27,990 nucleotides of DNA from a virus (taxonomy: Duplodnaviria; Caudoviricetes): positions 1 through 27,990 of IMG/VR virus record IMGVR_UViG_3300020044_011667, one strand, 5' to 3'. This document shows positions 4,426-26,755 of the stretch, in pieces (the stretch's first letter is position 1; each line of letters begins with the position of its first letter). The notes beneath the pieces were generated by a model that saw nothing but the letters and a program-made list of their open reading frames with translations, had not been told where the DNA came from and did not search any database. A program made the translations under genes and the position numbers.

Positions 4426-4893
4426 ATGTCTAAAGGTGTAAACAAAGTAATTCTATTGGGTAATTTGGGGCAAGACCCAGATATGCGCAACATGCAAAAT
4501 GGGGTCGCAGTAGCTACCATTAGCGTTGCCACACAGGAAAAATGGAAGGATGCTAAAACCGGTGAACAGAAGGAGAAAACAGAATGGCATCGCGTCGTAC
4601 TCTTTAATCGTTTAGCGGAAATATGCCGACAGTACCTTAAGAAGGGCTCCAAAGTCTATCTAGAGGGCAAGCTCGAAACGAAAAAGTGGACAGATAAAGC
4701 AGGCATAGAGCGTTACACAACTCAGATAGTGTGCAGTGAAATGCAGATGTTGGGTAACAGTCGCGGCACGGGAGCGTCGCCAGAACAGCCAGACGTGGGC
4801 GGATATGAAGAAGACGCTAAGCGGTATGCGGCGGCGAGTGGAGGCGGAGTGCATGCGGCTCCCGAATATAATGCTGATGATATTCCGTTTTGA
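4426..4893 (+). CDS. ssb: single-stranded DNA-binding protein
   Basis: [37 protein letters not shown]; C-terminal DDIPF. Confidence 0.97.
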
Positions 4894-4902
4894 TGTGTCG
4901 GC

Positions 4903-4966
4903 AATACCATAGTACTATAATATTATTATATTATAGTACTATGGAGTTATAGCAGTATAATATCTA
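4903..4966. repeat. array of 7-8 phased degenerate octamers (putative partition centromere), containing a 17-bp-arm inverted repeat
   Basis: aataccat agtactat aatattat tatattat agtactat ggagttat agcagtat aatatcta; IR arms at 4907-4923 and 4928-4944. Confidence 0.7.
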
Positions 4967-5257
4967 GCTGTCTTTCTCAATTAGAAGCTTCTTGTTTAAA
5001 GCGTTATTTAAATAGACTTCTATTGCTTCAAGCAGGAGGCTATTTAGGCTCTTGCTTGTCATAAAAGACAGAGTTTTAAGTGATTCCCACTGCTTTTCCT
5101 TAAGTCTAATCGTTGTTATTCGAATAGGTTCGCGCCCTTTAATAAAGGCTTTTGCTCGAAAATCTTCTTTTGTGCTTCCCACGTTTAGATTCCCGGGCTC
5201 ACTGCTTAATCTATCGCTTGAGATTGCAGGGATTCTGCTTTTTGTTTTACTGACCAC
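4964..5257 (-). CDS. ParG-like ribbon-helix-helix centromere-binding protein (97 aa)
   Basis: GTG start at 5257 behind GAGGTG, overlapping the parA stop; low-structure N-terminus, then IRITTIRL strand and two helices (EKQWESLKTLS, SLNSLLLEAIEVYL). Confidence 0.75.
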   Translation of the reverse strand: MVSKTKSRIPAISSDRLSSEPGNLNVGSTKEDFRAKAFIKGREPIRITTIRLKEKQWESLKTLSFMTSKSLNSLLLEAIEVYLNNALNKKLLIEKDS

Positions 5258-5924
5258 AAAACACCTCTCTGTATACTGCTGTAAATTCATCAATTGCCCT
5301 CTGATCTACGGGTTTATGCTCTACGATAGACATTCCGTTTGCGGATGCGGTACGTATAGGCTTGCGCTGATAGATGATGCTCTTTAATCGGATCAGGTTC
5401 TCGTAGTCGGTTAAAAAATCATCACACTCGGCTATCTCTTGTCTCGCCGCTTGTGGTTGTGTGCTTACTTTGCTTAATAATATGTAGCCACGCAGATCAC
5501 TGTCTTTGCTCTGAGCTTCTGACACTAGTTTACTTGCGTTTGAAAATGTCCACATATCGAACTCAGACGGAGTAACCGGAAAAATAACAATATCTGATAA
5601 AGTGATAGCTGCTCTCAAAACTTCATTGTCGGCCCCACCCGCATCTATAATAATGTCACTATATCTTGGCAGTAATGCCTTTATTTCATTGCGTATAACT
5701 ATGCCAGGGCTCAATATCTTTTTGTCTAATATTTTTTGATTGCTTTGTATGCGTGGCTCGATTTCATTTTGATCGCGTCTCGACAAGCAAAGTGTAGATG
5801 TGCTTTGTGGGTCGATGTCGAACAACAAGATATCCCGCTTTTCCAACGCTCGCATAATAGCGAAGTTTACAGCGACAGTAGTTTTACCTGTGCCGCCTTT
5901 TTGCCCCCCAATCGTGATTAACAT
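5247..5924 (-). CDS. parA: ParA/ParF-family partition ATPase (short, type Ib)
   Basis: Deviant Walker A KGGTGKTT, DIDPQ, IIIDAGG, PVTPSEFD; 225 aa with no N-terminal HTH. Confidence 0.93.
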   Translation of the reverse strand: MLITIGGQKGGTGKTTVAVNFAIMRALEKRDILLFDIDPQSTSTLCLSRRDQNEIEPRIQSNQKILDKKILSPGIVIRNEIKALLPRYSDIIIDAGGADNEVLRAAITLSDIVIFPVTPSEFDMWTFSNASKLVSEAQSKDSDLRGYILLSKVSTQPQAARQEIAECDDFLTDYENLIRLKSIIYQRKPIRTASANGMSIVEHKPVDQRAIDEFTAVYREVFCGQ

Positions 5925-5937
5925 AGTGAACCTCTAA

Positions 5938-6033
5938 TATGTTGTTATGTTATAGTATCATGCTATCATAGTATAATATCGTTATGCTACTATAATGTCA
6001 TGACAGCATGCTATAATAGTACCATAATACTAG
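5938..6033. repeat. array of 12 phased degenerate octamers upstream of parA (putative operator/centromere)
   Basis: tatgttgt tatgttat agtatcat gctatcat agtataat atcgttat gctactat aatgtcat gacagcat gctataat agtaccat aatactag. Confidence 0.75.
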
Positions 6034-6050
6034 TAGAGGGGAGGGGGGGG

Positions 6051-6221
6051 ATGTTAAAAAGCATGATTAAATTCCTTGAAAAAATATTCGGCTGTTTTCA
6101 CTCGTGGAATAAGTGGGAGCTTAAAAATCTAATCTACCATCATGGAGCCGAAGAAGGGAAAAGATTCATTAATATGCGCAATTGCGAAAAATGCGGTCTT
6201 TATAAGATTAAAAATTTATGA
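6051..6221 (+). CDS. small Cys/His (zinc-ribbon-like) phage protein
   Basis: IFGCFHSW...RNCEKCG; start at ATG 6051 after a G-rich SD (track start 6000 lies inside the repeat array). Confidence 0.6.
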   Translation: MLKSMIKFLEKIFGCFHSWNKWELKNLIYHHGAEEGKRFINMRNCEKCGLYKIKNL

Positions 6222-6334
6222 ATCTCGAAAACTACACTACACCAAAATTATGTAGTCAAAATCCCGAAGCCGACGCCCGCGCCGAATTTTTGATTTATTT
6301 GTTGGAGATGAAGAAATATAATGCCACTATTTAG
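6218..6334 (+). CDS. possible 38-aa peptide
   Basis: ATGA overlap with the upstream stop; MNLENYTTPKLCSQNPEADARAEFLIYLLEMKKYNATI; ends inside the endolysin 5' end. Confidence 0.3.
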   Translation: MNLENYTTPKLCSQNPEADARAEFLIYLLEMKKYNATI

Positions 6335-6713
6335 TAAGTCCTCAATGCTCCGTCTTTTGACGTGTCACAAAGACCTTCAAACGTTATTTAACGAGGTTAT
6401 TAAAACTTATGATTGTACAATTACCTGTGGGGTTCGAAATCGAGCAGACCAGGAAAAAGCGTTTGCGCAAGGGAATAGCAAGGTGCATTTTCCTAACAGC
6501 AAACATAATACTAGCCCTAGTCGCGCTATCGATGTTGTTCCGTATCCTGTTGATTGGGACGACATAGAAAGATTTAAAGAAATGGCGGTAGTCGTAAAAG
6601 ATGCAGCTAAGAGGCTAAAATCCGAAGGAAAAATTACTCACGATATCGAGTGGGGCGGAGACTGGAAGACGTTTAAAGATTATCCCCATTGGCAGATAAA
6701 AGAGGTGAAATGA
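6321..6713 (+). CDS. endolysin, M15-family L-Ala-D-Glu peptidase (T5-like)
   Basis: G.R...DQ, SKH....RAID, IEWGGDW..F.DYPHWQ zinc-peptidase motifs. Confidence 0.92.
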   Translation: MPLFSKSSMLRLLTCHKDLQTLFNEVIKTYDCTITCGVRNRADQEKAFAQGNSKVHFPNSKHNTSPSRAIDVVPYPVDWDDIERFKEMAVVVKDAAKRLKSEGKITHDIEWGGDWKTFKDYPHWQIKEVK

Positions 6714-8183: not shown

Positions 8184-8396
8184 ATGGCAAAGCTCACAAC
8201 CAAAGCCCGAGGCAAACTGGCGGCTAAAACCTTCGGACTTCCAAAAGAAAAGAAATATCCCATGCCTGACAAATCTCATGCGGCAAATGCTAAAGCGCGC
8301 GCTACGCAGATGGTCAACAAGGGGAAATTAAGCGCCTCCGAAAAAAAGAAAATAGACGCAAAAGCGAATAAGCTTTTATGTAAAGGTAAAAAATAA
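8184..8396 (+). CDS. small basic protein (DUF6582-like)
   Basis: MAKLT...R..L....FGLP.E.KYPMPDKSHAANAKARA pattern recalled from phage/bacterial small proteins; Lys-rich; GAGG RBS. Confidence 0.7.
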   Translation: MAKLTTKARGKLAAKTFGLPKEKKYPMPDKSHAANAKARATQMVNKGKLSASEKKKIDAKANKLLCKGKK

Positions 8397-8541: not shown

Positions 8542-10071
8542 ATGCCAACACTTCCTTGGTCTGGTAAAGGTTTTAAAACCACCCCCCTTGCGGCAGATTA
8601 CAGCTTGCTTGTTGATTCTGTCTCCGGTAACAATTTACGTTACACATTTGGTTCTTTAGCTCCAATTACAAGAGCTACCGAGCTTACAGGTTTAACATCT
8701 GTTAACTCCCCTATACTTCCCACTGATACTATTTTGCAAGGGTTAGGAAAAGCGCAGGGGCAGATTGACGATTTAGATGGCGGAAAATGGGAGCTTGTCC
8801 CGTCAACAACGTATTTGAGACCGGAGCAAGCTCTTGGTATTGCCGGCCTTCGTTTGTACAACTTATCGCAATCTGAAAGCGTTCGGACTTCTTATGAGTC
8901 AAACGGGTTTTATTTTGACTCATCTGATACAACTATGAAATGGCGCTTTTGGCAAACGTTGCAAGCAGAGACTTTTATAAAGTTAAATAATTCGGGCGCT
9001 TTAAACGCAAACAAAGGGATCTCTTTTTATGGTCTGAACGATCAATATAAAATTGGATTTGATGATGCTGGAGGTCTCTTAGGATCTCTGAGATATAATG
9101 TAGATACAGCCGCGAGTACTCATGGACATTTATTTTCTGCGGGAACGATAGGCTCTTCATCAACTCTGGCGTTTTTAAGCGGCATTGGTCAGTTACGAGT
9201 TTACAAAAATAATGGATGGTTAGCTGGGGTTTTTGGAGGGGTAGCAACAAATCAGGTTGTAATGGGTTCTTTAGAAAATGTTCCTACAATCGCTGGGCAT
9301 AATTCAGCGCTTAATGCGTATTCTGCTCTAAATTTGCGTAGTGACGGTAATTTAATGACGGTCTACGCCTCATCTTTTGAAGTTCTTTCTAATATAAATT
9401 CATATGGAAATGTTTATTCTCGTAACATTGTATCTCAAAACAAAAATACTTATATTTCGCATGACGCAATCAACAATGTTGGCGTTATACAATCTGTACA
9501 AGATGGCGTTGCGTTTCGTTCTACCTATATATCTGAACAAGGCGGTGGTGTTGCTTTTGGCCTGAGTAGGTCTATACCGGGTCTTGCGCTTTTTCATTCC
9601 GAACTTCCTGCATATTTTAAAAGTACAATAAATATAGACAATAGCCCTGTTGCGCCGTCTGCCGCAGCTCAAGGAGGTATGCTGTATGGATTAGCAACGG
9701 GCTCTTTTGATAATTTGTGTTGGATAGATCATTCTGACGCTGTTACAAACATAACAGACTTAAAACGTAAGATAATCACAAATAATTACAATACAAATTA
9801 TGGCGATGACATTTTACTAGTAAATGCAACTGAATTTACAGCAGGATCCCCTCTACAGATTACTGTTGCCGCTAACACAATCAAGCGCACATTGACAATC
9901 GTAAAAATAGCAGGCCCACAGGACAGCGTTGTAATCGCGGCTGAAATTGGTCATTTTATCAGCGGTAATTCTGGCGTATTTTTTGCGCTTGGCGCGAACT
10001 ATAACTACCTTCGATTACAACAACAAAACTCTACTAATGCATTCGATGTGGGCGCGCGCTATAGCTCATAG
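8542..10071 (+). CDS. virion fibre-like protein (head or accessory fibre)
   Basis: Gly/Ser/Asn-rich beta composition; LTGL..VNSPI..TDTILQGLGKAQGQI segment and C-terminal DDILLVNAT..ITV..LTIVKI..ISG module recalled from phage fibres. Confidence 0.7.
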   Translation: MPTLPWSGKGFKTTPLAADYSLLVDSVSGNNLRYTFGSLAPITRATELTGLTSVNSPILPTDTILQGLGKAQGQIDDLDGGKWELVPSTTYLRPEQALGIAGLRLYNLSQSESVRTSYESNGFYFDSSDTTMKWRFWQTLQAETFIKLNNSGALNANKGISFYGLNDQYKIGFDDAGGLLGSLRYNVDTAASTHGHLFSAGTIGSSSTLAFLSGIGQLRVYKNNGWLAGVFGGVATNQVVMGSLENVPTIAGHNSALNAYSALNLRSDGNLMTVYASSFEVLSNINSYGNVYSRNIVSQNKNTYISHDAINNVGVIQSVQDGVAFRSTYISEQGGGVAFGLSRSIPGLALFHSELPAYFKSTINIDNSPVAPSAAAQGGMLYGLATGSFDNLCWIDHSDAVTNITDLKRKIITNNYNTNYGDDILLVNATEFTAGSPLQITVAANTIKRTLTIVKIAGPQDSVVIAAEIGHFISGNSGVFFALGANYNYLRLQQQNSTNAFDVGARYSS

Positions 10072-10911: not shown

Positions 10912-11367
10912 ATGGGCAGACGTAAATTAGCGTCAAGCGCGGATGAAGAGGATTCAATATTTGCTGAAATTTGCGAAAAAATAGCAAACTCAAAGCAAGG
11001 GATTGAGCACATATTAAAAACGGATGAAAAATACCCTTCTCTTTCTGTGTTTTTTAAATGGAAAAGAGAAGACCCGATTAAAAACAAAATTTATCTTCAA
11101 GCGAAAGATGTTCAGGGACATGTCTTTGCTGATGAGGTAAATAGGATAGCTCAAGAATTAGAGTCTCTCGCCGACCAGTGCGATGCAAATTTTATTTTAG
11201 CGCACACACGAAGGCTTGTCGCTTTGCAAAATAGTAGGACATGGCAGGCAAAGAATTTTGCGCCACGTCAGTTTGGAGACAGTCACACCACCGCCATTGA
11301 AGAGCTGATGGCGAAAGTTAACTCGATGGCTGAAAATGAAATAAATGGCAAGTCTAGCGGAAATTAA
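10912..11367 (+). CDS. terS: terminase small subunit
   Basis: EICEKIA..PSLSVFFKW HTH, Y.QAK..Q...ADE, RTW.A...APRQFGD (Sf6-like TerS); precedes terL. Confidence 0.88.
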   Translation: MGRRKLASSADEEDSIFAEICEKIANSKQGIEHILKTDEKYPSLSVFFKWKREDPIKNKIYLQAKDVQGHVFADEVNRIAQELESLADQCDANFILAHTRRLVALQNSRTWQAKNFAPRQFGDSHTTAIEELMAKVNSMAENEINGKSSGN

Positions 11368-12886
11368 AAAGCGGATAGAGCAAATTGAAGCCGCGAGAGC
11401 CAAAAGGAAAAAAGTAGATATCACGCTTGATGGAAATGTAATTACGGTTCACGGAAAAAGTGACATTATTTACAGACCATCAAAAACGGGGATTTTACTA
11501 AGCAACGCAAAAGATTTTGTTATTGCGACTAAAGGCCCAGTTCGGTCTGGGAAGTCGACAATGAAAATAAACAAGATGATGGAGCACACGCTTCAAATGC
11601 CGCCGTGCCTTGATGGCGTTAGGCGTGCATGCTGGGCGGTTATTCGTAACACGTACGGCGAATTAGAAACTACAGTTCTTCGGACATGGATGATGTGGTT
11701 TGGTGATTTAGGCGACGCTTATCTTCGGATGAATGCGCCCATCTATTATAAATCATGCTTTAGGGATACGCATGGACCTGTCGAGCTTGAAGTTTATTTC
11801 ATGGCGCTTGACAGAGCCGAAGATGTAAAGAAATTAGATTCTTTGGAATTAACCGGCGCTTATGTTAATGAGTGCCGATATATTCCTGAAATAGTTATTG
11901 ATAGATTGCAACAACGAGTAGGACAGTTTCCAAAAAAAGATTTTGTACGCGGAGGGAAGTTTGATGGATTGATTTTGCTTGATACTAATCCTCCTTCTAC
12001 GCGCCATTGGTTTTATGAAAAGTTTGAAAAGAAAAAAACCCCGGGATATTTATTGCTTAGTCAGCCGCCAGGGCTTCTTAAACTTGACGATGGTACTTAT
12101 GTGACAAATCCAGAAGCAGATAATTTAGAAAACTTGAATCCGTCTAATTATTACGAGCAAGCGGCGATAGGACAAAGTCAAGAGCACATCAATGTTATGT
12201 TAATGGGAAATTACGGTATTACATCAGAAGGTAAGCCGGTTTACCACGAGTACGATGATGATAGGCATTCGGCGTGGGGGCTTGAGTATATGCCAGATTT
12301 GCCCGTTTATCTCGGAATCGATTACCAAACATTACCATCGGTTGTGTTTTCGCAAGTTTCACCGAATGGACAGATACAGTTTTTGAAAGAACTGATCGCA
12401 ACACATCAAGGGTGGAATGCTTTTGTTGATGTGCATTTGATGCCTTACATTCAGCGCACATTGCGCGGACATAAAATTTACGCATATGACGACCCAAGCG
12501 GGGGAAATAAAGTAGCGACGACAGCGACATCATGCAGACAGTATTTAGCAACGCATGGGATTAGAGCTATGCCTGCCTACTCCAACACTATCAGCGTTCG
12601 CATTGAAGTTGTTAGAAATGTTCTAAGAAACAATATAGACGGGAAGACCCCGGAATTTATTTTAAGTCGAGAAGGATGCCCCACATTAAGAGAAGGCTTT
12701 ATTACGGGTTATCGATTTAAAGAGGTGGGGACAAAGAACGGCACAGAATACAAAGATGAACCTGAAAAAGATAGGTTTGCCGACGTGCATGATGGTTGCC
12801 AATACAACTTAATGGGGATTAAAGGTCCTCCAAGACCAAAAACTGTAATTAAAACAAACATGAAACCAAAAGGGGTTTGGGCATAA
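11345..12886 (+). CDS. terL: terminase large subunit
   Basis: Walker A GPVRSGKS, AVIRNTY.EL, Walker B LTGAYVNE, DTNPP, nuclease YLGID and DVHDG.QY. Confidence 0.95.
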   Translation: MASLAEIKKRIEQIEAARAKRKKVDITLDGNVITVHGKSDIIYRPSKTGILLSNAKDFVIATKGPVRSGKSTMKINKMMEHTLQMPPCLDGVRRACWAVIRNTYGELETTVLRTWMMWFGDLGDAYLRMNAPIYYKSCFRDTHGPVELEVYFMALDRAEDVKKLDSLELTGAYVNECRYIPEIVIDRLQQRVGQFPKKDFVRGGKFDGLILLDTNPPSTRHWFYEKFEKKKTPGYLLLSQPPGLLKLDDGTYVTNPEADNLENLNPSNYYEQAAIGQSQEHINVMLMGNYGITSEGKPVYHEYDDDRHSAWGLEYMPDLPVYLGIDYQTLPSVVFSQVSPNGQIQFLKELIATHQGWNAFVDVHLMPYIQRTLRGHKIYAYDDPSGGNKVATTATSCRQYLATHGIRAMPAYSNTISVRIEVVRNVLRNNIDGKTPEFILSREGCPTLREGFITGYRFKEVGTKNGTEYKDEPEKDRFADVHDGCQYNLMGIKGPPRPKTVIKTNMKPKGVWA

Positions 12887-14877
12887 TGGCCGGAAAATTA
12901 ACGAAAGCAAAGCAAGATAAAATTGTAAAAGAAGCCTACGCAGCGGCGGACAGTTATTTTACATCGTTTAAAGATAATATTGACCGCTATCGGAGTCAAC
13001 TTAAATTTTGGATAAGTATTCGCGATCAATGGGACGAACCCCAAAAAGCTACCATTTCAAGCTTTAATCAAATACCTCTCGCCTGCCCTAAAATTTACGG
13101 CATTGCACGGAGAATGATTGGAGAGCAACGGCAATCCACTCCAGACATAAAAGTTTCCGCGCTCACTGAGAAAGCAACACCCGAAGATTTGAAGTTACGT
13201 GATGATTATGTGCGCACAGCATGCTTTCATTCAGATGCGCATGTAGCATACCAAACGGCATATCGCTGCACGATGTTTGGCGGTTTTGGAGCGTGGAAAA
13301 TGTTTCCAAAGTACGAAAATTCAAACACCTTCAATCAGTACATGGCATTAGCAAAAGTAGATGACCCTACATTATGCTTTTGGGACATTGCTGCAAAAGA
13401 TCCGTCGAAAGGTGATGGAGACCACTGTGGCGAATATTTCACAATGCCAACAAAGAGATTTGAATCAAAATATCCAGGCATAGACGTTACAACGTACGAC
13501 GCGCTTCCTAATTGTGGTTACGTGATGTCGGATAAAGATTCCGTCGGCATTATTATATATCAACGAAAAGAATATTTTAATAAAACAATTCTTCAAATGG
13601 AGTCAGGCGAAGTAATTCAGGAAAAAGAATACGAAAAGAAAGTAAATGAATATGTGGCAATGCAAAAAGAGATAGCGGAAGTTTCTGGAGTTCCTTTTGA
13701 CCCGGAAACAATGGAAATTCCAGAAAGCTTACGCCCAACTAATAAAAAGCGAGTTGCTCGCGATTATAAAATACGCACTTATAAAATTGCAGGCAAGCAA
13801 GTGCTAGAACATTTCACATGGCCAGCAAAAGAGCTTGGTTATATATTTATCGACGGCGATTCCTCCTGGGTAAACGGAAAGCAAGTAACAAAACCTTTTT
13901 TCGAAGATGCACAAGATTTACAAAAAGCGGGAAACTATCTGTTTACAAAAATTACGCACCTCATCCGCACTATGCGTTCTGAACAATGGCTGGTTACCCC
14001 GGAAAACATTACCGGGTACGAAGCTATGTGGCAAAATCCTGAGCTCCAGCAAGGCGCGTTAATTGCAAATCCAGATAACAACGGAATGATGCCGATACAA
14101 CTTCAGCCAGGCTCTATTAGCATGGCGCTTATTCAACAATATGAAACGTTGATGCAGAATATAAATACAACGTTAGGTATCTATGAAGCCTACGAAGGAA
14201 ATAATGGGCGAGAAATATCAGGCGTAGCGCACGAAAATCGCGTAAAGCAAGGGAATCTTGCTACCTTTATTTTGAACAGCAATCTCAATCGCGGCGTTGC
14301 GCAAACCGGAAAAGTGTTTTTAAGCGCATTTCCCAGACTGTATGACACCCAACGCCCCATCACCCTCACTTCCCGTGATGGAGAAACACGCACGATTATA
14401 TTAAACAAATCAGATGGCGGTCAGATTTTAAATGACACATCTGGCGATGATTATTATATCGAAATGGATGCAGGCTCCTCATTCGAAGGACAGAAAAAAG
14501 AATCGCTTGACGCGTTGCGCGAGTTACTGCAAATCAACCCAGGGATTTCACAATTGACTGCCGACCTTTTTGCCGAAAATTTACCACTTCAAAATGCTCA
14601 AGTATTGGTTCGTCGTTTACGCGCCGCTCTTGTCCCCCCGGAAGTCGTGGCCGCTGGAAATGGCGAAGAAATGCCACCCAAAGAGCCAGAGCCGCCGCCC
14701 CCAGAAGTAGAGTACATGATGCAAGATATCAAACTACGCAGAGAAAGGCAGCAACAAGAAGCCGCCTTGAAGCAAGAAAAATTAGATCTCGAAAGAGAAA
14801 AGCAAGAATTCGACGCTTATGTGCAAGAAGAAAAGCTAAATCTGGAAGCCGCTAAAATAGGCATCTATGAACGATAA
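12886..14877 (+). CDS. portal protein (P22-like)
   Basis: 663 aa after terL (TAATG coupling); DQW, IGEQRQ, GGFGAW, ISGVA..R..QG motifs; C-terminal coiled coil. Confidence 0.9.
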   Translation: MAGKLTKAKQDKIVKEAYAAADSYFTSFKDNIDRYRSQLKFWISIRDQWDEPQKATISSFNQIPLACPKIYGIARRMIGEQRQSTPDIKVSALTEKATPEDLKLRDDYVRTACFHSDAHVAYQTAYRCTMFGGFGAWKMFPKYENSNTFNQYMALAKVDDPTLCFWDIAAKDPSKGDGDHCGEYFTMPTKRFESKYPGIDVTTYDALPNCGYVMSDKDSVGIIIYQRKEYFNKTILQMESGEVIQEKEYEKKVNEYVAMQKEIAEVSGVPFDPETMEIPESLRPTNKKRVARDYKIRTYKIAGKQVLEHFTWPAKELGYIFIDGDSSWVNGKQVTKPFFEDAQDLQKAGNYLFTKITHLIRTMRSEQWLVTPENITGYEAMWQNPELQQGALIANPDNNGMMPIQLQPGSISMALIQQYETLMQNINTTLGIYEAYEGNNGREISGVAHENRVKQGNLATFILNSNLNRGVAQTGKVFLSAFPRLYDTQRPITLTSRDGETRTIILNKSDGGQILNDTSGDDYYIEMDAGSSFEGQKKESLDALRELLQINPGISQLTADLFAENLPLQNAQVLVRRLRAALVPPEVVAAGNGEEMPPKEPEPPPPEVEYMMQDIKLRRERQQQEAALKQEKLDLEREKQEFDAYVQEEKLNLEAAKIGIYER

Positions 14878-14888
14878 ACCGCAGTGCA

Positions 14889-14919
14889 TAAAGGCTGCCC
14901 CCTTCGGAGGGCTTTTATT
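14889..14919 (+). terminator. intrinsic terminator after portal
   Basis: GC..CCCT-TCGG-AGGGC hairpin followed by TTTTATT. Confidence 0.6.
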
Positions 14920-14941
14920 CAAAATCCACACGCATTTCGAG

Positions 14942-14999
14942 AATATTGCTCCAGTAAACAGCAAATTTAGTTGATTATTGCTGTTTTTTGGAGTATATT
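14942..14999. promoter_or_regulatory. imperfect inverted repeat containing a sigma70-like promoter upstream of scaffold
   Basis: Arms at 14942-14964 and 14978-14999; TTGATT(14971)-17 nt-TATATT(14994). Confidence 0.5.
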
Positions 15000-15037
15000 G
15001 TCTGTCAGCTATAACCTACATTGATTAAGGGGATTTC

Positions 15038-15784
15038 ATGACAGATTTAGATCCAGTTTCCACTGACAATATTGATGACTTAAATAATGAAAGCGTGCAA
15101 GCGCAAGAATTAGAAGTTCAAGATATTGCAGAAAAAGGAAGCGAGTCTGAGGCAGGTTACGAATCGTCAGAATCAACTCCGGCTAGCGCCTCTTACGACA
15201 ATGATTATTTAGCAAGAGAATTGCAGGAAATTAAGCGGCAACTTTCAGAAGCGGTTCGCGCCCAATCTCAGCAATTTAATCATGGCGGGCAAGAGCAAAC
15301 TTATGCCGCAACGCCGAAGGATATTGTTCTTCAGGCGCTTGAGGACATAAAGCAAGACCAGAAAAAGATTCAGTACCAACGCTTTCAGCAAGAATACGAA
15401 ATGAAGCTGGCATCAGCGCCATCGAGATTTCGTGACTTTGAAAGCACTGTATTTAAAAACGGGTCACACCCCTTTTCAGATGAAATGATTGAAATACTCA
15501 AATCATCTGACGACCCCGTAGCGACGATTTACCACGCCGCTAAAAATTATTCGGCTGATTTGGATCGCATTAGAGCTATGCCTAATGCACCAATGCAGAT
15601 TAGGGAAATGGTAAAGCTTGAAGAAAAAATTAAAGCATCACTTAAGCCGCGATTAGTTTCGCGTGCGCCATCTCCAATGCAGCATGATATCGGTAGCGCC
15701 GGTACCTCAGCAGGAGACGATGTTAATAGTACGTCTGGTATGGCAGATTTTTTGCGCCGGCGTGATAACTCCCGTCCAACCTAA
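15038..15784 (+). CDS. capsid scaffolding protein
   Basis: Acidic, coiled-coil, between portal and coat; SRAPSP and C-terminal DFLRRR basic helix. Confidence 0.8.
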   Translation: MTDLDPVSTDNIDDLNNESVQAQELEVQDIAEKGSESEAGYESSESTPASASYDNDYLARELQEIKRQLSEAVRAQSQQFNHGGQEQTYAATPKDIVLQALEDIKQDQKKIQYQRFQQEYEMKLASAPSRFRDFESTVFKNGSHPFSDEMIEILKSSDDPVATIYHAAKNYSADLDRIRAMPNAPMQIREMVKLEEKIKASLKPRLVSRAPSPMQHDIGSAGTSAGDDVNSTSGMADFLRRRDNSRPT

Positions 15785-15798
15785 AAAGGTATATACAC

Positions 15799-17034
15799 AT
15801 GGCCAATGCCGCTATTTTTTCAGATCTCGTATCTAAATACTTGTTGCCCGATTTCGTCAACAACATACAATTTTTAAAACACGCCAACCGAGAATTTGAG
15901 GGCATGTTTTCCGATACTCAGTATATTTCCGGCCAAACAGTAAACGTATTACTGCCTAACCGATTTACGCCTGGTTTCGGTTCAACCGTTACACCCCAAG
16001 GCGTGCAAGACAGAACAACTCCTCTCACCATCGAAGAGCAAATTCACGTTGGAATGTCTTTTACGTCGTCAGAATTAACGACAGACTTTCGTACCTCCGG
16101 TGTAAATTTAAGCATTCGTGACAAATATACTCGCCCCGCATCTTTGGATATTGCTAACTCTGCGGACACATATGCAATCAGCAAATTAAAAACTATCAAT
16201 AACTTTGTGGGAACTGCGGGAACGTTAGTTAACTCTATTGATATCGTTAATAACGCAAATGCAAATTTAACGGCACGCGGCGTTCCACTTCATGATCGCT
16301 ATTGCGGCGTTAACATTCAAACAGGCGCGAGCATTAAAAACTCGATGAAATCTAACTTTACGCCTAACATCAATGAAGGCGTGGTAAAAACAGGTTTTAT
16401 TGCAAATATCTACGGGACTGAGTTTTTCGAAACTCAGAATTTGGGGTATCATACTTCCGGCCTTGGAAATGAAACTGCGGCAGTTGGCGGCTTAATTCCT
16501 TGCGGAACGGTAAAAACAGCGGTTTCCACTGGGAACACTATCGTGCTGCAAGGCTTACAAAATAACACTGTGGGTGTTGTCAAAGCTGGCGATATTATCC
16601 AAATGCAAGTTACCCAGTCCGTTAACTTTAGAACAAAAGCTCCTACCGGATCTTTAATGTCGTTCTCAGTTTTAGCAGATGCAAATTCTGGTCCAACCGG
16701 CGAATGTACTATTACGGTTTCGCCGTCTATTGTGACGACTGGGAATTATAAAAACGTAAGCGGCATTATCGGTGTTGGCGAAGCTGTAAAGCTTGTTGCA
16801 TCTCATAACGTTGGCTACCTCCTTCAGAAATCCGCATTGACCGTTGCCATGCCCAAGTTAAAGCCTTTGGGAGCGGGAACAACATCTACTGCGATGACAT
16901 TTGACAAAGAATACAGCATCGGCATGCGTTATTCCGAAGGTTCTTTGATTTTAACTGATGAAAATGTCCAACGATTGGATATCTTAATTGGCGCGCTTTG
17001 TCTCGCTGATTACGGAGTTCGTATCGTTGGTTAA
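15799..17034 (+). CDS. major capsid protein (P22 coat family)
   Basis: GQTVNV.LP.RF, F.S.ELT, Y.RPA...IAN..D, RLDIL.G motifs; position after scaffold. Confidence 0.92.
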   Translation: MANAAIFSDLVSKYLLPDFVNNIQFLKHANREFEGMFSDTQYISGQTVNVLLPNRFTPGFGSTVTPQGVQDRTTPLTIEEQIHVGMSFTSSELTTDFRTSGVNLSIRDKYTRPASLDIANSADTYAISKLKTINNFVGTAGTLVNSIDIVNNANANLTARGVPLHDRYCGVNIQTGASIKNSMKSNFTPNINEGVVKTGFIANIYGTEFFETQNLGYHTSGLGNETAAVGGLIPCGTVKTAVSTGNTIVLQGLQNNTVGVVKAGDIIQMQVTQSVNFRTKAPTGSLMSFSVLADANSGPTGECTITVSPSIVTTGNYKNVSGIIGVGEAVKLVASHNVGYLLQKSALTVAMPKLKPLGAGTTSTAMTFDKEYSIGMRYSEGSLILTDENVQRLDILIGALCLADYGVRIVG

Positions 17035-17044
17035 CTTAAACCAA

Positions 17045-17069
17045 AGAGGGGGCATGTTGTGCTCCCTCT
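17045..17069 (+). terminator. hairpin after capsid gene (attenuator or mRNA stabiliser)
   Basis: AGAGGGGGCAT-GTT-GTGCTCCCTCT; no clear U-tract. Confidence 0.5.
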
Positions 17070-17086
17070 AAATTAAGGAATTAAAA

Positions 17087-17497
17087 ATGAGTTATGGTGT
17101 AAAGGCAGACGAGATCCAAGACATTATTGATACGCAAGAGCCTGAGTATACGTTCGACCACATGGGGCATGCGCATGTAGTCTGGCCTCTCTTAGCAAAA
17201 AAACGAAGAGAGCAGCGAGGCGAAACTAGTAATTTTGATCCGGAAACCACGCCATCCATCTATATTTTTGATGTGAATTCACGGCATGTATTAGTTAACA
17301 AAGCAGGGTTTGAAACGCGGGATAAATCCAAGTGGTTCCCAACGTTAGAAGAAGCGATGTTAGCAAAAGAAAAAGCATTAGATGAAAAATTAGCTTCCCT
17401 TTCAAAACGACAAAAATCACTTGAAGCGGCGAAGAAACAAAAGGAAGAAGAAGCTAAAAATTTAAAAGATTTAGAAAGTGACAGTAATCCAGAGTAG
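17087..17497 (+). CDS. hypothetical protein with C-terminal coiled coil
   Basis: AAGGA RBS, 136 aa. Confidence 0.7.
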   Translation: MSYGVKADEIQDIIDTQEPEYTFDHMGHAHVVWPLLAKKRREQRGETSNFDPETTPSIYIFDVNSRHVLVNKAGFETRDKSKWFPTLEEAMLAKEKALDEKLASLSKRQKSLEAAKKQKEEEAKNLKDLESDSNPE

Positions 17498-17546
17498 CTG
17501 ATAATGCAAACCATTGCGGCTCTCTTATTTTTTCGGTGGGGCCGTA

Positions 17547-18245
17547 ATGAGTGTAATTACAGTAAATCAACTCGTTTTAGATGCGTATCTATTGACGGGT
17601 GAGTTTGACCCCATAAATCCTCCCAGTCAGGGGCAAGTCTCACGCGGGATAGCAGAATTAAAATACATTATTGAATGCACCCCCAGCATTTCGCTTCCCT
17701 TTCAAAAATCATTCACATTTAATCTTGAGGCCGGAAAACGTATTTATACATTTGGCGAAACTCCCGCGCAGGATTTTGACATGCGTAGGATTCAGCGATT
17801 AAATACAGCATTTATAACGTGGAATGATGTCACTTATGATGTGAAGGTTTTAGATCAGGTTGTTTACTATCAATCGCTTCGCGTAAACACGCTCCAAACT
17901 TTACCTAAAATATGTGTTCTTGAAAACTCGCAAGGCTATTCTCAAATCACGATTTACCCAAAGCCAGACATTGAATATCAGTTCACCATTAAATACATGG
18001 AAGACTTAGGCGATTTCACACCGCAGCAGCCAATAGATAACATTCCGCCTTATCAATTTAAATTCATTCGTTATGAGCTCGCTTCAGTTTTATGTGACAT
18101 TTACAATCTTTCCTGGTCTCCAAAAAAATCGGAAGAACTTGAAAGGCTGAGAAAAATTGCGAGATCACAAAATTTTCATGATTTAGTTGTTAGAGCATCA
18201 ACGGGAAGAGACGCAGGCTACGGGAGGATTCTCAGTGGCGTTTGA
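17547..18245 (+). CDS. head-tail adaptor (P22 gp4-like position)
   Basis: T.NQLV.DAY...G, AGKRIYT.G, ITIYPKPD, P.Y...IRY.LA..LC motifs; start at ATG 17547. Confidence 0.75.
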   Translation: MSVITVNQLVLDAYLLTGEFDPINPPSQGQVSRGIAELKYIIECTPSISLPFQKSFTFNLEAGKRIYTFGETPAQDFDMRRIQRLNTAFITWNDVTYDVKVLDQVVYYQSLRVNTLQTLPKICVLENSQGYSQITIYPKPDIEYQFTIKYMEDLGDFTPQQPIDNIPPYQFKFIRYELASVLCDIYNLSWSPKKSEELERLRKIARSQNFHDLVVRASTGRDAGYGRILSGV

Positions 18246-19668
18246 ACCTTTTGAAAAGCCGTTAGATATTATCGGCAGCTTTAATAAAACAAAATTTAAG
18301 CGCGTCGACTCTGCTCGCACCGTCAACTTGTATCCCGTTATCTACAACAAGCTCGGAGAATCTTCTCTTTTCTCCTTCCCTGGATACAAAAAAAAATCAG
18401 AGCTTCAAGGACAAAAAGGAACGAGAGCATCTTTTAACCTAGGAGACCGCGTTATATTTGTGTGCGGTAACGGCGTATTCACAATGAACGAAGCGCTCGT
18501 TACGGCGCAGATAGGCACGCTAACAACATTTTCAGGCCATGTTGGAATCGCAGCGAACGCATCAGGACAAGTGATTTTTGTTGACGGCGCATTTGGATAT
18601 ATTTACGAGAACAATGTTTTTACAAAAATTACAGCGCCTGCATTTCCTGCTCTCCCCGTTAGCGTTGTTTTCCTTGACGGATTTTTTTACGTTGCAAAAG
18701 GCAATTCTCCAACGTTTTACCAGTCTGCCCCTAACAATGGGAACTCGTGGGATTCAATGAATTTCGCATCCATCACAACAAAGCCAGACATTATTGTAGC
18801 GATGGCCGTTTTAAATCGAAGACTTTTTATTTTCGGGAAAGAAATAACAGAAACCTGGTACAACGCTGGCCGGCCTACGGTTGCAGTTGCGCGTGACAAT
18901 AACTTAATTCTGCCTTACGGATGCGCATGCGCTGATAGCGTTGAAGTGGATTACGGTTTGATGTTTTTCATGGCGGCGCAATCAGGCGGCCCCAATCAAA
19001 TCATGATGACAGATGGAACGGAGCCAAGAAAAGTAAGTAATCCGAATATGGAAAATGAAATTTCGAATTACATAAAACCAAGTGATGCCTCTGCTAATTT
19101 ATGCAAATTTGAAGGTCAGTTATTTTACATTTTGTCGTTTACAACAGATCAACATACGTGGGTCTACAATTTTAATACCGGCGGGGATGACTGGGCAGAA
19201 GCCGAGCAACTACCCGGTACGCGGCACATTATGCAGGCGCATATTTATTTTAAAAACAAACATTACATCGGCTCTTATCTCGACGGAAATATTTACGAAT
19301 TGTCAGACAAATATTACGACAACGACGGAACTACGTTCAGACGGCAACGAGTAACGCCACGGCTTTACGACCCAAGATATAGAAAAATTACGATCGACCG
19401 TCTTGAGGTCGATTGTTTAAAAGGAAATGGGTCTGCATTTGGTGAAGACGAAGAGCCATTGTTATTTCTTTACGTTTCAACCGACGGCGGGATCACATTT
19501 AAAGCATGCCTTTCAGAAACAACAGGCGAGATAGGAAAATACAGTCGGCGCGTCATTTTTAGAACGCTCGGCTCTGCTTACGATTTTGTTTTTAAATTTG
19601 AATATTTCAACAGAACAGAATTTGCATTAATTGGGGCGGTAATCAAAGGGACGGTAAGCGACAGATGA
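18235..19668 (+). CDS. tail hub / packaged DNA stabilisation protein (P22 gp10-like)
   Basis: RTVNLYP, VDG..GY, FLDGFF, PD.IV, FG...TE.W, STDGG.TF, G.IG.Y..R motifs; GTG start 18235 behind GGAGG. Confidence 0.85.
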   Translation: MAFEPFEKPLDIIGSFNKTKFKRVDSARTVNLYPVIYNKLGESSLFSFPGYKKKSELQGQKGTRASFNLGDRVIFVCGNGVFTMNEALVTAQIGTLTTFSGHVGIAANASGQVIFVDGAFGYIYENNVFTKITAPAFPALPVSVVFLDGFFYVAKGNSPTFYQSAPNNGNSWDSMNFASITTKPDIIVAMAVLNRRLFIFGKEITETWYNAGRPTVAVARDNNLILPYGCACADSVEVDYGLMFFMAAQSGGPNQIMMTDGTEPRKVSNPNMENEISNYIKPSDASANLCKFEGQLFYILSFTTDQHTWVYNFNTGGDDWAEAEQLPGTRHIMQAHIYFKNKHYIGSYLDGNIYELSDKYYDNDGTTFRRQRVTPRLYDPRYRKITIDRLEVDCLKGNGSAFGEDEEPLLFLYVSTDGGITFKACLSETTGEIGKYSRRVIFRTLGSAYDFVFKFEYFNRTEFALIGAVIKGTVSDR

Positions 19669-19925
19669 GCCTATTACCTACACTACCCCCTCCTCCTCTT
19701 TACGACAGATTTTTAAATGATGACGGAAAAGTAACGGACGCATGGCAAAACTGGTTTAGTTTATTGCAGATTGGCTTAGAAGGCTCTCAATTTGATTCTG
19801 TTTCGTTAGCGGCAGTTGATGCGCCAGAAGCACCAGAGACAGGAATTATTTTGTACGCGAAAGATGATAAAAATTTATACGCCATGAATGAAGATGGCTC
19901 CGAATATAAAGTAACCCCTTTTTAA
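19665..19925 (+). CDS. small virion/tail protein
   Basis: ATGA coupling; PPP....DG.VT.AW..WF pattern seen after gp10-like genes. Confidence 0.65.
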   Translation: MSLLPTLPPPPLYDRFLNDDGKVTDAWQNWFSLLQIGLEGSQFDSVSLAAVDAPEAPETGIILYAKDDKNLYAMNEDGSEYKVTPF

Positions 19926-19940
19926 TTTTATAGGTGATTT

Positions 19941-20636
19941 ATGGATCCAATGACAATGTTATCGCTAGGAACTTCTCTTTTTGGCGGCTTAGGAAGCCTT
20001 TTCGGGGGGAACAAAGAATCTAAAAACTACGAAGAAATGGCGCGACAAATTCAAGCGGCCATGGAAGAGCAACGCAAGCTAACAGGCCAAGCTAATAATT
20101 TAATATCGCCATGGCATCAGGCCGGTCAAAATGAAATTGGCGGCTATCAGCAAAATTATAAAAAGCTCATGGATCCAGAATTCATCAATAAATTGATGGG
20201 CGATTACAAAACAAGCAATTGGGCGAACCAGCAATTAAAAAGCGGAAACCAAGCCATTACGAATGCGGCATCTGCAAGCGGCTCTCTGAATAGCGGACAG
20301 TTCGGAAAGGATATGGCTAACTATTCCACCGATATTATGTCGCGAGATCAAAACCAATATATAGATAGGATTCTACAGCAATACGGAATTGGCGTGGGTC
20401 ACCAAGGGGACATGGTGGGGAACGGAATGAGAGCGGGAGGCCTGATGGGGCAAAATTTAATTGGAATGGGCGATAGAAACATAAACGCAATTATGGCTGC
20501 ACAAAAAGCTCGCATGGAAGGAAGCCAAGCCCAACAGGGCGGACAGGCGGGGCTAATGAACTTCATCACTGGCGGGCTAAGCGGATTACGTGGCCTAAGT
20601 GGTTTAGGTGGTTTAGGTGGTTTACTAAAAAGGTAA
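19941..20636 (+). CDS. ejection (DNA transfer) protein, P22 gp7-like
   Basis: Gly/Gln/Met-rich; PW.QAG, ITNAASA.G.L.SG motif; position. Confidence 0.75.
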   Translation: MDPMTMLSLGTSLFGGLGSLFGGNKESKNYEEMARQIQAAMEEQRKLTGQANNLISPWHQAGQNEIGGYQQNYKKLMDPEFINKLMGDYKTSNWANQQLKSGNQAITNAASASGSLNSGQFGKDMANYSTDIMSRDQNQYIDRILQQYGIGVGHQGDMVGNGMRAGGLMGQNLIGMGDRNINAIMAAQKARMEGSQAQQGGQAGLMNFITGGLSGLRGLSGLGGLGGLLKR

Positions 20637-20640
20637 CGTT

Positions 20641-21963
20641 ATGCAATACATCAATCCAGCGCTACTTCCCGAATACGACCCAGAAAAAACCTTCCTTGGT
20701 CAGCTTCTTGGCTTTCGTCAAAAAGAAGGGCAAGCTAACCTTGCGCAAAATCAAGCGGGATATTATGACGCGCTTCGCCAGCTTGAAGGCGCAAAGATTC
20801 CGTATGCGCAACAAACCGCAGAAGCAAAAATGCAGCATGAAATGTTGAAAAACTTCTGGAAAGAGCAACAAGGATTGAAGGAACAAGCGCATGCATTGAA
20901 TCTCCCTGGCGATTACGCATCAAAAAGAAGCTTGCGCGGAGCTCAAGCGGGAGCGTCAAACGCAGCTGCGGCATTGTCACACACTAGACGCGCAGGACAA
21001 GAAGGAACAAATTCTTGGATGGAAAGTCTTCGCTCAAACCCATTGTTTCAAGCCAAAACTGTCGGAGGCAGATTGTCGCCAGAGGTTGTGGCAGCAATTT
21101 CAGGGCAAGCTGCAATAGGAAATTCACCGCTGCAAATGGACGCAGTTGACAGGCAAGGAATGCCCGTAGGCCAGCCTCAACAGCCTGCACAAATGCCTAT
21201 GCCACAAGGTGGCGCACGAGGCGCGCCGATGCAAGGTGGAATTCCTTTTGCTAGAAGTCCGCAAGGAGAAAATGCGCCTGCTGCGCAGAATTTTGCGCCT
21301 CAAGAGCAAATTAACCAAGCTGCGCAACAACAAAAAACAATGTATCAAAAGGCATATCCGCAATTGATGGACGCAATTCAAAACAAGCTAGAAAAGGCTC
21401 AGCTGGCCAATCCTGCCGCGGCTCAAAAATTACAATACTTAACCAACATCAAAGAAACTATTGCCGGAATAAATCCAGACGTAGTTAAAGCGTATGGAGG
21501 AATAGATGGAAGGGCAAAATTAAGAAGAGATAAAGGGCTATCCGCTTTAGGCATTGCTCCTCCTGAATATGATGAATACGTCGAATTTGTTGAAAACCAA
21601 GCAGTAATTCTCGCGTCACAGATACGCCAATTTTATGGCGACTCCATTCAGCCGAAAAAAGAAGAACAAATCATGGAAACATTTTCATCTGAAAATATCT
21701 ATAAAAACCCAGAAGCCGCATTGAGAAAAATGGCCGAACTAATTCGAATCGTAGAATCCGAAGGTATGACTTACGCTAAGCCCGTCGGCTCACTTATACA
21801 TGAAGCAAATAATTTGGGGTTTGGTAAAAAGTGGGATGGAATTTTATCAAAACATAAAGAAGAAAAAGAAAGAAAACAAAATGGCGTAAATGAAACAGTA
21901 AAGCCTCTTTCCTCAGAAGAGCTCAAAGAAGCTAAACAGCTTCAGGCATTAGGGAAAATATGA
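20641..21963 (+). CDS. putative ejection protein (gp20-like position)
   Basis: Gln/Ala-rich helical, 440 aa, follows the gp7-like gene. Confidence 0.6.
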   Translation: MQYINPALLPEYDPEKTFLGQLLGFRQKEGQANLAQNQAGYYDALRQLEGAKIPYAQQTAEAKMQHEMLKNFWKEQQGLKEQAHALNLPGDYASKRSLRGAQAGASNAAAALSHTRRAGQEGTNSWMESLRSNPLFQAKTVGGRLSPEVVAAISGQAAIGNSPLQMDAVDRQGMPVGQPQQPAQMPMPQGGARGAPMQGGIPFARSPQGENAPAAQNFAPQEQINQAAQQQKTMYQKAYPQLMDAIQNKLEKAQLANPAAAQKLQYLTNIKETIAGINPDVVKAYGGIDGRAKLRRDKGLSALGIAPPEYDEYVEFVENQAVILASQIRQFYGDSIQPKKEEQIMETFSSENIYKNPEAALRKMAELIRIVESEGMTYAKPVGSLIHEANNLGFGKKWDGILSKHKEEKERKQNGVNETVKPLSSEELKEAKQLQALGKI

Positions 21964-23672
21964 AAAACGACAAATCACAAGAAGATTTAGCGCGACGCTA
22001 TAGGGAATATAAAGCCAAAAATGCAGCGCCGACAGGAGACAAGTTGCTAAAAGATATGATGCCTGGGCAATCCGGATTCAGCAAAGCCGAAAATAACTTT
22101 TGGAAAAAATTTGTGCAAGGCGCGGTCAACGCAGTTCCGTCTGTAGCTAATCTTGCAAATAAAGGAATGAGCTCTCTTGCTAGTGCGGTAACAGGAAAAG
22201 ATATTCCTTACACCCCGTTTCCATATCGCGCTGAATTTGGCGATTCAAATATGCCTGGCGCATCTGCCGGTGAATTTCTAGGTTCAATGGTTATGCCAGG
22301 GGTGGGCGTTGCTGGGAATGCGGTGCAAGGCGCGATAAAAGGAGCTCCACTCATTGGGAAAATACTAGGAGGGGCAACATCAGGAGGCTTAGGCGCGGCG
22401 GCCGCAGGAGTGACAGAAAACCCCGAACAAAATTTAAACGGTATGAATGTCGGAATATCTTCGCTGATTGGCGGGGGCACCGGCGGCCTTTTGGGTATTC
22501 CAGCGGCTTTGGCTGGGAGACAGCTCAGAGCAGTAAAAACCGCACGAGAAGCTAACCCTAAAAGCCCTGAAAACCCTACCGGAATACGCTCGCCTGAACA
22601 AGTGGCAGAGCTGGGCGCAAAATTTCCAGAAAATAGTATTGATTTGGCTTCCTTGGCTGGCCATAAAAAAAACGCGGGATTTTACAGCGACGTATTAGGA
22701 CGCTTACCGCTTACGGGAGTCAGAAAGGCGGAACAAAAATCGCTAAAAGCGTACGAAGGAATCAAAGCAGAGAACCAATCAACCTGGGAAAATTTTAAGA
22801 AAAACGCAAAAGATTCTAACGTGAAGGTAGATTACGAGCCGCTTTATAAAGATTTAAATGAAAAATATAGTTCATATCTGGGCATAAAACAGCCAAAACA
22901 GCCAAAAGGAAAGGCGCGAATGTCAGAAGAAGAATTTTTATCAAAACTCAATCCTGAGCAAAGAAAAATTGCAATGAAAAAGCTAGGGATAAATCAAAAT
23001 ACGATATCAGAAAACACAAAAAGAGCTCTACTCAAAGAGGCGAATGTTTCCCTCTTAAAAACAATTAATCTTGGCGGTGACAGTTTAAGCGATGCGATAA
23101 AAAAATATCAAAAGCTAGGCGATATGGCGCGCTCAACGAAAGCGCCGTCAGCAAAGAGCGAAATAATGGACGCTCAAAAACTAGTCAAGCAAAGCATAGA
23201 GGAGTCCCTACAAAAATCAGGAAGAAAAGATTTGATTCAGGAATGGCAGTCGGCAAACAAAAGCCACATTAATAAACTTGAAACAGGAAAAGCATTAAAA
23301 AATGCGAGAGTCCGCCAGGGTGAAACATTTTCAAACACCATGGGCAAAAACATTGTTGGTTCACCGGCAGGAAAGGGCGTGCAGCTTGGAATAATGGGCG
23401 CGCTTGGCCTTGTGTCCGGAAAAGGAGCCGCCGCCGCCGCTGGGGCTAACGCCATTGGCGGAATTTCTGCTAAGACGGCAAGAAGCAAATCCTTGCGGGA
23501 TGCCTATGTTTCCGGTGAAGCCCTCAACGAAAAAAATCTAAGCAAAGATATCTTTCCTATTTGGATGCGAGCGTTAGGAGTTGGCGCAAAAGAAACCCCA
23601 CGCGCAGTAGGCGTAGGGATTGCAAAAGCAGATAGAGAGCGTCAAAAACGAAAAGAAGAGGAATCCAGATAA
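21960..23672 (+). CDS. putative ejection protein (gp16-like position)
   Basis: Gly/Ala-rich hydrophobic segments plus Lys-rich helices, 570 aa. Confidence 0.6.
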   Translation: MKNDKSQEDLARRYREYKAKNAAPTGDKLLKDMMPGQSGFSKAENNFWKKFVQGAVNAVPSVANLANKGMSSLASAVTGKDIPYTPFPYRAEFGDSNMPGASAGEFLGSMVMPGVGVAGNAVQGAIKGAPLIGKILGGATSGGLGAAAAGVTENPEQNLNGMNVGISSLIGGGTGGLLGIPAALAGRQLRAVKTAREANPKSPENPTGIRSPEQVAELGAKFPENSIDLASLAGHKKNAGFYSDVLGRLPLTGVRKAEQKSLKAYEGIKAENQSTWENFKKNAKDSNVKVDYEPLYKDLNEKYSSYLGIKQPKQPKGKARMSEEEFLSKLNPEQRKIAMKKLGINQNTISENTKRALLKEANVSLLKTINLGGDSLSDAIKKYQKLGDMARSTKAPSAKSEIMDAQKLVKQSIEESLQKSGRKDLIQEWQSANKSHINKLETGKALKNARVRQGETFSNTMGKNIVGSPAGKGVQLGIMGALGLVSGKGAAAAAGANAIGGISAKTARSKSLRDAYVSGEALNEKNLSKDIFPIWMRALGVGAKETPRAVGVGIAKADRERQKRKEEESR

Positions 23673-26671: not shown

Positions 26672-26755
26672 AAAAATGTTACACGTGCAACAACAGCTAA
26701 CAGATTACTTTAAAGGTAATGGGTTATCTCCGCAAAGCATCGTGTAACATTTTTC
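26671..26755. repeat. long inverted repeat between convergent operons
   Basis: Perfect 15-bp arms GAAAAATGTTACACG (26671-26685) / CGTGTAACATTTTTC (26741-26755) with an inner stem. Confidence 0.8.

Follow-up and report, generated by a model that had tools for sequence, protein, structure and literature searches.

The locus studied here raises the question of why a phage with P22-like virion genes carries a pair of partition-type genes, and whether its prophage is kept as a plasmid. The window, i.e. the whole stretch of DNA analysed, is the entire viral record of 27,990 bp, which is classed as linear and has a CheckV completeness of 49%. Neither end repeats nor other indications of circularity were found across the 27,990-bp window, and no tRNA or tmRNA genes were detected in it. 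The part of the genome beyond the window is estimated at about 3-8 kb; terminase relatives are often found on contigs of ~ 35 kb.

The rightward early operon begins with a Cro-like HTH regulator (2-253, + strand), 78% to cro of the sister phage G037 described below. A lambdoid-type replication initiator (990-2201, +) and a DnaC-like loader (2095-2868, +), which overlaps the initiator end, are the sole replication genes seen. Further along are ssb (4426-4893, +; 83% to G037 ssb), a small ORF (6051-6221, +) whose start and ribosome site match the G037 gene located just after the one replaced by the cassette, and an M15-family endolysin (6321-6713, +; 73% to G037 endolysin). The virion, packaging and lysis genes that characterize a phage-plasmid are present: besides the endolysin, profile matches define a P22-like virion module (10912-25954, +) comprised of TerS (10912-11367, +), TerL (11345-12886, +), P22 portal (12877-14877, +; Pfam E 3.8e-89), scaffold (15038-15784, +), P22 coat (15799-17034, +; Pfam E 4.3e-12), a gp10-like head-closure protein (18187-19668, +), an ejection protein (19941-20636, +) and a tail fibre (23672-25954, +). 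Relatives of the coat protein were not found among the viral contigs searched. The distal part of the leftward early operon (26754-27990, -) follows, and the window ends within a duplicated Ala-rich ORF. The sequence-only reading had described P22-like virion genes combined with a lambdoid initiator/DnaC module, and a cassette placed antisense between ssb and the lysis region; the P22-type portal and coat, the initiator/DnaC pair and the position of the cassette were all recovered.

Several other features of the window were recorded. A perfect pair of 22-bp direct repeats, 30 bp apart, lies inside the initiator gene (1680-1731) and could represent either origin iterons or a coding duplication. 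A 70-aa basic protein (8184-8396, +; phrog_16160) is 57-77% identical in G004, G006, G008-G011 and G037, and is far more conserved than the virion proteins of those records (21-44%). Ahead of the terminase genes is a 509-aa ORF (8542-10071, +) without family matches; a 658-aa G037 protein shares 57% identity with its residues 81-272. At the other end, two tandem paralogous ORFs (27255-27990, -; phrog_18326, weakly Imm5-like) contain Ala-rich 12-bp repeats and are almost identical at their 3' ends. The window breaks off inside the second of these paralogues, which is a likely cause of the assembly end.

The cassette is comprised of two overlapping genes. The upstream one (5247-5924, - strand) encodes a short Walker-A ATPase of ParA/ParF type with 225 aa, matching phrog_164 "ParA-like partition protein" (E 6.6e-40). 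Its P-loop, GGQKGGTGKTT (residues 6-16), begins at residue 6, so that no N-terminal HTH is present. Residues G7, K9, G10, G11, K14 and D94 are invariant across 94 aligned clade members. The protein also matches ParF of TP228 (4dzz; E 3.6e-9) and the NCBIfam family ParA_partition (E 3.9e-34), yet in the latter case its score stays under the curated cut-off (118 vs 180 bits). The short deviant-Walker-A ATPase without N-terminal HTH that defines type Ib systems is thus found here, with the signature lysine invariant.

Other classes of ParA-related proteins were also considered. Type Ia systems, with HTH-bearing ParA and CTPase ParB, were ruled out by length and fold. An orphan ATPase of the MipZ/MinD kind was ruled out as well, as the partner gene and the arrays are conserved alongside ParA. 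An N15-type linear phage-plasmid with protelomerase and SopAB was rejected because ParA is short and the partner is RHH-like, not SopB; in addition, no protelomerase was found in 40 ORFs of this partial record.

The second gene (4964-5257, -) encodes a candidate centromere-binding protein of 97 aa, ParG-like, with a GTG start and an AGAGAGG ribosome site. The GTG lies within the 3' end of parA, giving an 11-nt overlap, and the identical overlap is observed in L001, pWALBA1, pWALBA2 and L088. A word-based search with the 97-aa protein returned only itself, and homologues were gathered from parA neighbourhoods. The N-terminal tail, flexible as judged from low confidence in the model, carries a conserved IPxISxDR(16)L motif. 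In the 13 aligned partners, IPxIxxxR16 and the residues R51, F65 and N72 of the RHH region are invariant (13/13). The arginine-bearing flexible tail typical of type Ib partners is therefore present through R16, with a putative arginine-finger role. A profile built from these 13 proteins had Arc repressor as its top match (E 0.008), followed mostly by RHH proteins, and the ParG-like proteins of pWALBA1/2 matched it at E 1e-19.

The fold of the partner was examined by modelling, since an RHH structure prediction had been named beforehand as a check. The single-sequence fold gave a poor model (pLDDT 62) with no RHH, and an alignment-based model was used in its place. Built on a shallow alignment, it shows an extended stretch followed by confident helices at residues 54-67 and 71-96. 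Most of its structural neighbours are RHH domains (VIA, Z ≤ 6.5), such as pCXC100 ParB (Z 4.6) and omega (Z 4.1). A Foldseek search with the model gave no match at E ≤ 0.001, the best being E 0.43, and RHH scores are modest one by one (Pfam RHH_3, E 0.13). The Arc match, the fold neighbours and homology to the ParG-like proteins of pWALBA agree with a small downstream partner with a C-terminal RHH, and we predict that its C-terminal region, approximately residues 45-90, folds as a ribbon-helix-helix. The proposed coupling of a short Walker ParA to a 97-aa RHH-like gene is likewise upheld by two open reading frames, their 11-nt overlap and the homologous pair in pWALBA1/2.

Both ends of the cassette are occupied by repeat arrays built from related units with the consensus TAYYATRR, which is self-complementary when repeated. 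Array A (4905-4968), located 3' of the RHH gene, is a candidate centromere (parS-R/parH-like) with seven clear 8-bp units and one degenerate, and it holds a perfect 17-bp inverted repeat. Array B (5940-6035), located 5' of parA, is comprised of about 12 tandem 8-bp units and is a candidate operator and centromere (parS-L/OF-like). The two arrays give the two highest period-8 peaks in the whole 28 kb, each with p = 0.002 against 500 dinucleotide shuffles; among 100 shuffles of the whole window, none reached the score of array A and one reached that of array B. A matrix trained on one array finds the other, with 4-unit scores of 32.3 and 24.9, while the best sites outside the arrays score 11.0 and 6.5 and the joint-matrix maximum in 200 shuffles is 15.7. 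No third array site or dispersed genome-wide regulon was found above shuffled background in the window. The description of two related arrays bracketing the cassette therefore stands, as each matrix recovers the other array and the unit is absent elsewhere in the window.

A sigma-70-like promoter match (ATGACA-17-TATTAT, 10/12; 5973-6001, -) lies inside array B and is directed into parA; it is a consensus match only, in a region with 10 such matches vs 4.8 expected. Array B, with p = 0.002 and overlapping this promoter-like match, corresponds to the upstream repeat centromere/operator of type Ib systems. Of 13 relatives tested, 12 have an upstream period-8 array at p ≤ 0.01, one of these being only a TA-rich low-complexity run; downstream arrays reach this level in just 3/14. 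In other P22-portal phages (L168, L167, L185, L207), arrays with an 11-bp period are located 5' of parA, and G006-G011 have arrays with 8- or 16-bp periods before it. Array period may track Par lineage.

Taken together, the short ParA, the RHH partner with its invariant N-terminal arginine, the two cognate-looking arrays and the homology to the pWALBA1/2 pair argue for the type Ib assignment made earlier, and from its sequence the cassette is very likely an intact two-gene, two-array type Ib partition unit. By analogy with ParF/ParG and delta/omega, RHH dimers would load cooperatively onto the palindromic 8-bp units of both arrays, and binding at array B would repress the par promoter inside it. 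The Arg16 tail would stimulate ATP hydrolysis by ParA, and nucleoid-bound ParA-ATP would move prophage copies into both daughters.

Comparison with G037 delimits the cassette. This phage is the closest terminase relative with context (73% identical) and is syntenic with the window, while no ParA was found in its 27.4 kb. At the left junction, DNA homology to G037 stops at 4898, just short of array A; at the right junction it returns near position 6035, where the ribosome site of the following small gene (6051-6221) lies. The corresponding interval of G037 holds a single 73-aa gene. As homology breaks at both array edges, the outer array edges are the cassette borders, and the flanking stop and ribosome site are intact at both junctions. 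GC content of the cassette is 0.39-0.42 vs 0.41-0.48 in its neighbours. Because the cassette opposes the operon in which it resides, and because ParA occurs in none of 28 terminase relatives, gain by the window phage is more likely, as far as the direction of change can be inferred, than loss in G037.

The same Par clade is found on a range of other elements. About 95 proteins are 43-66% identical to the window ParA, and its best plasmid matches are in Wolbachia pWALBA1 and pWALBA2. Of 15 close-clade loci, 14 have a homologous small gene immediately behind parA, the exception being L089, a Wolbachia chromosomal copy. In a tree of 39 ParA rows, the window ParA and pWALBA belong to a clade of 14 rows (100/99), within which the window ParA is placed beside pWALBA1/2 and the Wolbachia copy with weaker support (94/87). 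The clade also accompanies a T7-like virion module (G001), baseplate-bearing phages (G002, G003) and a MobA contig (L085), and is therefore a mobile module. In the 39-row tree, where long branches meet, ParAs from P22-portal phages are divided among at least four supported groups, which suggests that these phages took up ParA repeatedly.

Two of these carriers can be described further. The G001 genome (L245/L246, 33.5 kb) combines the T7-like virion module with a lambdoid initiator, RecT, two Cro-like HTH genes and a response-regulator-like gene; its Par is of the window clade (53%), and a tyrosine integrase or resolvase was not found. The MobA contig L085 (1062-7157) belongs to a 1.6-Mb gammaproteobacterial genome and carries, in addition to the Par clade, a reverse transcriptase and a protein with an MLKL N-terminal domain. 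Spread of the clade among Rickettsiales, Wolbachia and small-genome gammaproteobacteria gives a low-confidence hint at a host-associated bacterium as the host. SSB matches (54-56%) were uninformative in this respect, and a partner search through 41 genomes of the order around G065 returned only G065's own strong match.

To assess integration, we inspected the meeting point of the late and left operons. The leftward ORFs at the window end are homologous to, and in the same order as, those of the G037 left early operon (64% over 55 aa; 45% over 40 aa), with the segment 26754-26945 being 64% identical to a G037 left-arm gene. This shared order indicates that the window spans the point where the two operons meet. 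In L371 and L372, annotated P22-like circles, int/xis are located exactly at this junction. In the window it is occupied by an 82-bp gap (26672-26753) without int/xis, located between the end of the late operon and the distal left early operon. The G037 stretch matching the missing part of the window (~ 3.3 kb) carries RecT, Gp157 and small genes, and integrase is absent from it; the junction itself is not included in the G037 sequence. L371 and L372 were deposited as plasmids, have no listed ParA and are probably excised prophages. Since integrase-bearing P22-like circles occur among "plasmid" records, circularity is weak evidence for a plasmid state.

The relation between partition and integration was addressed in a comparison set of 36 records drawn from 82 viral loci found by ParA; they were picked by close ParA, length or window-protein matches and are thus a biased sample. 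A P22-type portal is present in 15 of them, 13 well above the Pfam cut-off among 31 records, with G004 and G005 added by tblastn; G022 and G023, with weak portal matches, were excluded. The cassette had earlier been called an unusual pairing with P22-like virion genes, which is an overstatement: pWALBA1 pairs the Par clade with a P22-type portal and a gp10-like gene, and in 14 of the 15 other records a ParA of 210-229 aa is followed by a gene of 66-109 aa. The partner profile recovers eight of those 14 small genes at E < 0.01. In G034, ParA is longer, its neighbour is a 313-aa ParB-like protein, and three tyrosine recombinases are present.

Among the P22-portal and ParA records at least 90% complete, a tyrosine integrase was found in 0/11, a small serine resolvase in 4/11 and end repeats in 8. 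The control set contained 28 terminase-selected records (25 longer contigs of 80, plus 3), chosen without regard to portal type and, besides G037, only 34-39% identical. None of these has ParA (0/28), and integrase is present in 8/28 and in 5/9 complete ones; the integrase search recovered 5/5 positive controls. The difference between 0/11 and 5/9 gives a Fisher p = 0.008, which overstates independence because some of the ParA records are closely related. Across the relatives, a genome with Par tends to lack Int and vice versa. Four of the nine complete controls have neither ParA nor tyrosine integrase, so integrase absence alone does not mean a plasmid. Both functions can occur together: PARCL1pr encodes an integrase besides a short ParA and a small gene 3' of it, and G002 carries the window clade's cassette plus a 175-aa tyrosine recombinase.

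Inspection of the record for circularity, integrase and protelomerase, suggested at the outset, gave the following: the record is classed as linear and has no end repeats, and neither enzyme was matched among the 40 ORFs scanned in the 28 kb of this incomplete record. An integration module is absent from these 28 kb and its usual site is empty. We consider it probable that the phage persists as a non-integrated circular plasmid prophage, as first proposed. The empty int site and the tendency of Par and Int to exclude each other speak for this; a linear fragment of 49% completeness cannot prove it.

How such a plasmid would replicate is the most weakly inferred step. A CI-type repressor, a toxin-antitoxin pair, a resolvase or a plasmid Rep was not seen in the 28 kb examined of this partial record, and because no plasmid-type Rep was seen, we propose that the plasmid state would replicate from the phage's own lambdoid initiator/DnaC module. 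In the partial genome, that pair is the only initiator candidate; the single 22-bp repeat pair was found, an iteron array being absent. Cro autoregulates lambda-dv. Laboratory plasmids that combine the lambda origin with cro exist, according to the accessible part of the source (PMC3017604). A far-reaching version of the plasmid-prophage reading would hold that a single clean cassette swap has just made this phage a phage-plasmid, that it is one of a hitherto undescribed group of podophages, with genomes of 35-41 kb, which infect host-associated bacteria with small genomes and have acquired short-ParA/RHH cassettes several times, and that it persists lambda-dv-like from its lytic initiator/DnaC origin under Cro-like autoregulation without CI or integrase; as a whole we regard this as unlikely.

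Other explanations of the cassette differ in the role they leave to partition. If there were no regulated lysogen, Par would position or spread replicating genomes during infection or transient pseudolysogeny, in a lytic or carrier state. A repressor was seen neither in the window nor beside cro of G037, where the segment left of cro (L360:4150-4700) has no recognisable CI-type gene, and the window contains no addiction module or resolvase. A Peptidase_S24 repressor (PF00717) was found in 0/25 records, but this search was equally empty for relatives with integrase and is therefore non-discriminating. The divergent layout of cro and left operon with RecT is lambdoid-temperate in style, and RedRock prophages are stabilised by an intact two-array cassette, as the accessible part of that study states (PMC7157519); a purely lytic or carrier life is thus quite unlikely. 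We hold it rather improbable that the phage integrates by an integrase encoded in the unassembled part, with Par stabilising excised circles or permitting a dual integrated and episomal life. The record is incomplete, Par coexists with an integrase or recombinase in PARCL1pr, G002 and G034, and 8/28 terminase relatives have integrase; against this, the usual int site is present in the window and empty, the matching G037 stretch lacks the gene, and none of the 11 near-complete P22-portal and ParA records has it.

Alternatively, the cassette could serve no function in the phage, having arrived recently as a passenger or having been joined to it by misassembly with a co-occurring plasmid. The sister phage lacks it, and its clade is represented on plasmids too, as illustrated by the MobA contig. 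The two junctions coincide exactly with the array edges and the flanking stop and ribosome site are kept, GC is like that of the neighbours, and the design recurs in 14 of the 15 other P22-portal and ParA records, all of which makes this explanation very improbable. A plasmid prophage maintained by partition thus remains the preferred reading.

The partition mechanism itself is already known, and so is the plasmid-prophage lifestyle, which has rarely been reported for short-tailed phages. In the accessible part of a phage-plasmid survey, 95.9% of classifiable ones are sipho- or myoviruses and podoviruses are few (PMC7969092), and a review, in its accessible part, states that no case of a phage-plasmid arising through acquisition of plasmid genes has yet been observed (PMC11652158). 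Our literature search, mostly without subscription papers, found no description of a P22-like phage-plasmid with this cassette beyond pWALBA1, and no paper about a complete P22-like lambdoid phage that carries it. What the present analysis contributes is the exact cassette swap seen against a sister phage, the unoccupied int site and a set of Par-bearing P22-like podophages that is apparently undescribed. The arrangement of short ParA and small gene recurs in at least 11 other podophages from metagenomes. The cassette-free sister phage pins both junctions almost to the base, and the at least 11 near-complete podophage records with Par and without Int point to an under-counted route from lambdoid/P22-like phages to plasmid prophages. 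Being compact (1.13 kb) and kin to cassettes of Wolbachia and Rickettsiales plasmids, this unit could also help vector stability.

The closest known counterparts are the Wolbachia plasmids pWALBA1, pWALBA2 and pWCP, which, in the accessible part of their description, have a ParA-like/ParG-like pair as in the window (PMC9560607). In pWALBA1/2, ParA is 47-51% identical and the partner 37% over 75 aa. Genes listed there for pWALBA1 include those for ParA-like, ParG-like, terminase, portal, stabilisation and coat proteins; the authors raise the idea of a phage-plasmid, and pWALBA1-like regions are also found as chromosomal islands (PMC9560607), for which L089 may be compared. Its portal (E 1.6e-16) and gp10-like gene (E 3.9e-5) are homologous to those of the window. 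Unlike the window, pWALBA1 is an 18.8-kb plasmid with DnaB and RelBE, and its description, as far as accessible, has no detected tail or lysis genes. The window carries, in contrast, a full P22-like virion module, an endolysin and the lambdoid cro/initiator/DnaC genes.

ParB of RedRock, a cluster A mycobacteriophage, is an RHH protein of type Ib. According to the accessible part of its report, RedRock resembles the window in having no integrase and in placing parA-parB between two sites of tandem 8-bp units; these two parS sites have eight units each, and the plasmid prophage is stabilised at ~ 2.4 copies (PMC7157519). RedRock differs in being an actinobacterial phage whose cassette, in the same account, takes the place of the integration cassette itself, whereas in the window it resides among early-right genes, away from the int site, and its units are self-complementary. 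Burkholderia phage KS14 is similar, as its accessible description indicates, in coming from a normally integrating family and having a short ParA, a small downstream gene and a plasmid prophage (PMC3091744); its ParA is 31% to that of the window. In contrast, it is described there as a P2-like phage encoding RepB of plasmid type along with a serine recombinase, and its small protein gave no match to the partner profile (E 0.9). TP228 ParF-ParG-parH and pSM19035 delta-omega share with the window a short Walker ATPase, an Arg-tailed RHH partner and promoter-overlapping upstream repeats, and the definition of type Ib given in the accessible part of a paper on such systems fits the window cassette (PMC5016525). 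The window differs from both in its repeat unit, in its second array downstream, and in being a phage instead of a conjugative resistance plasmid.
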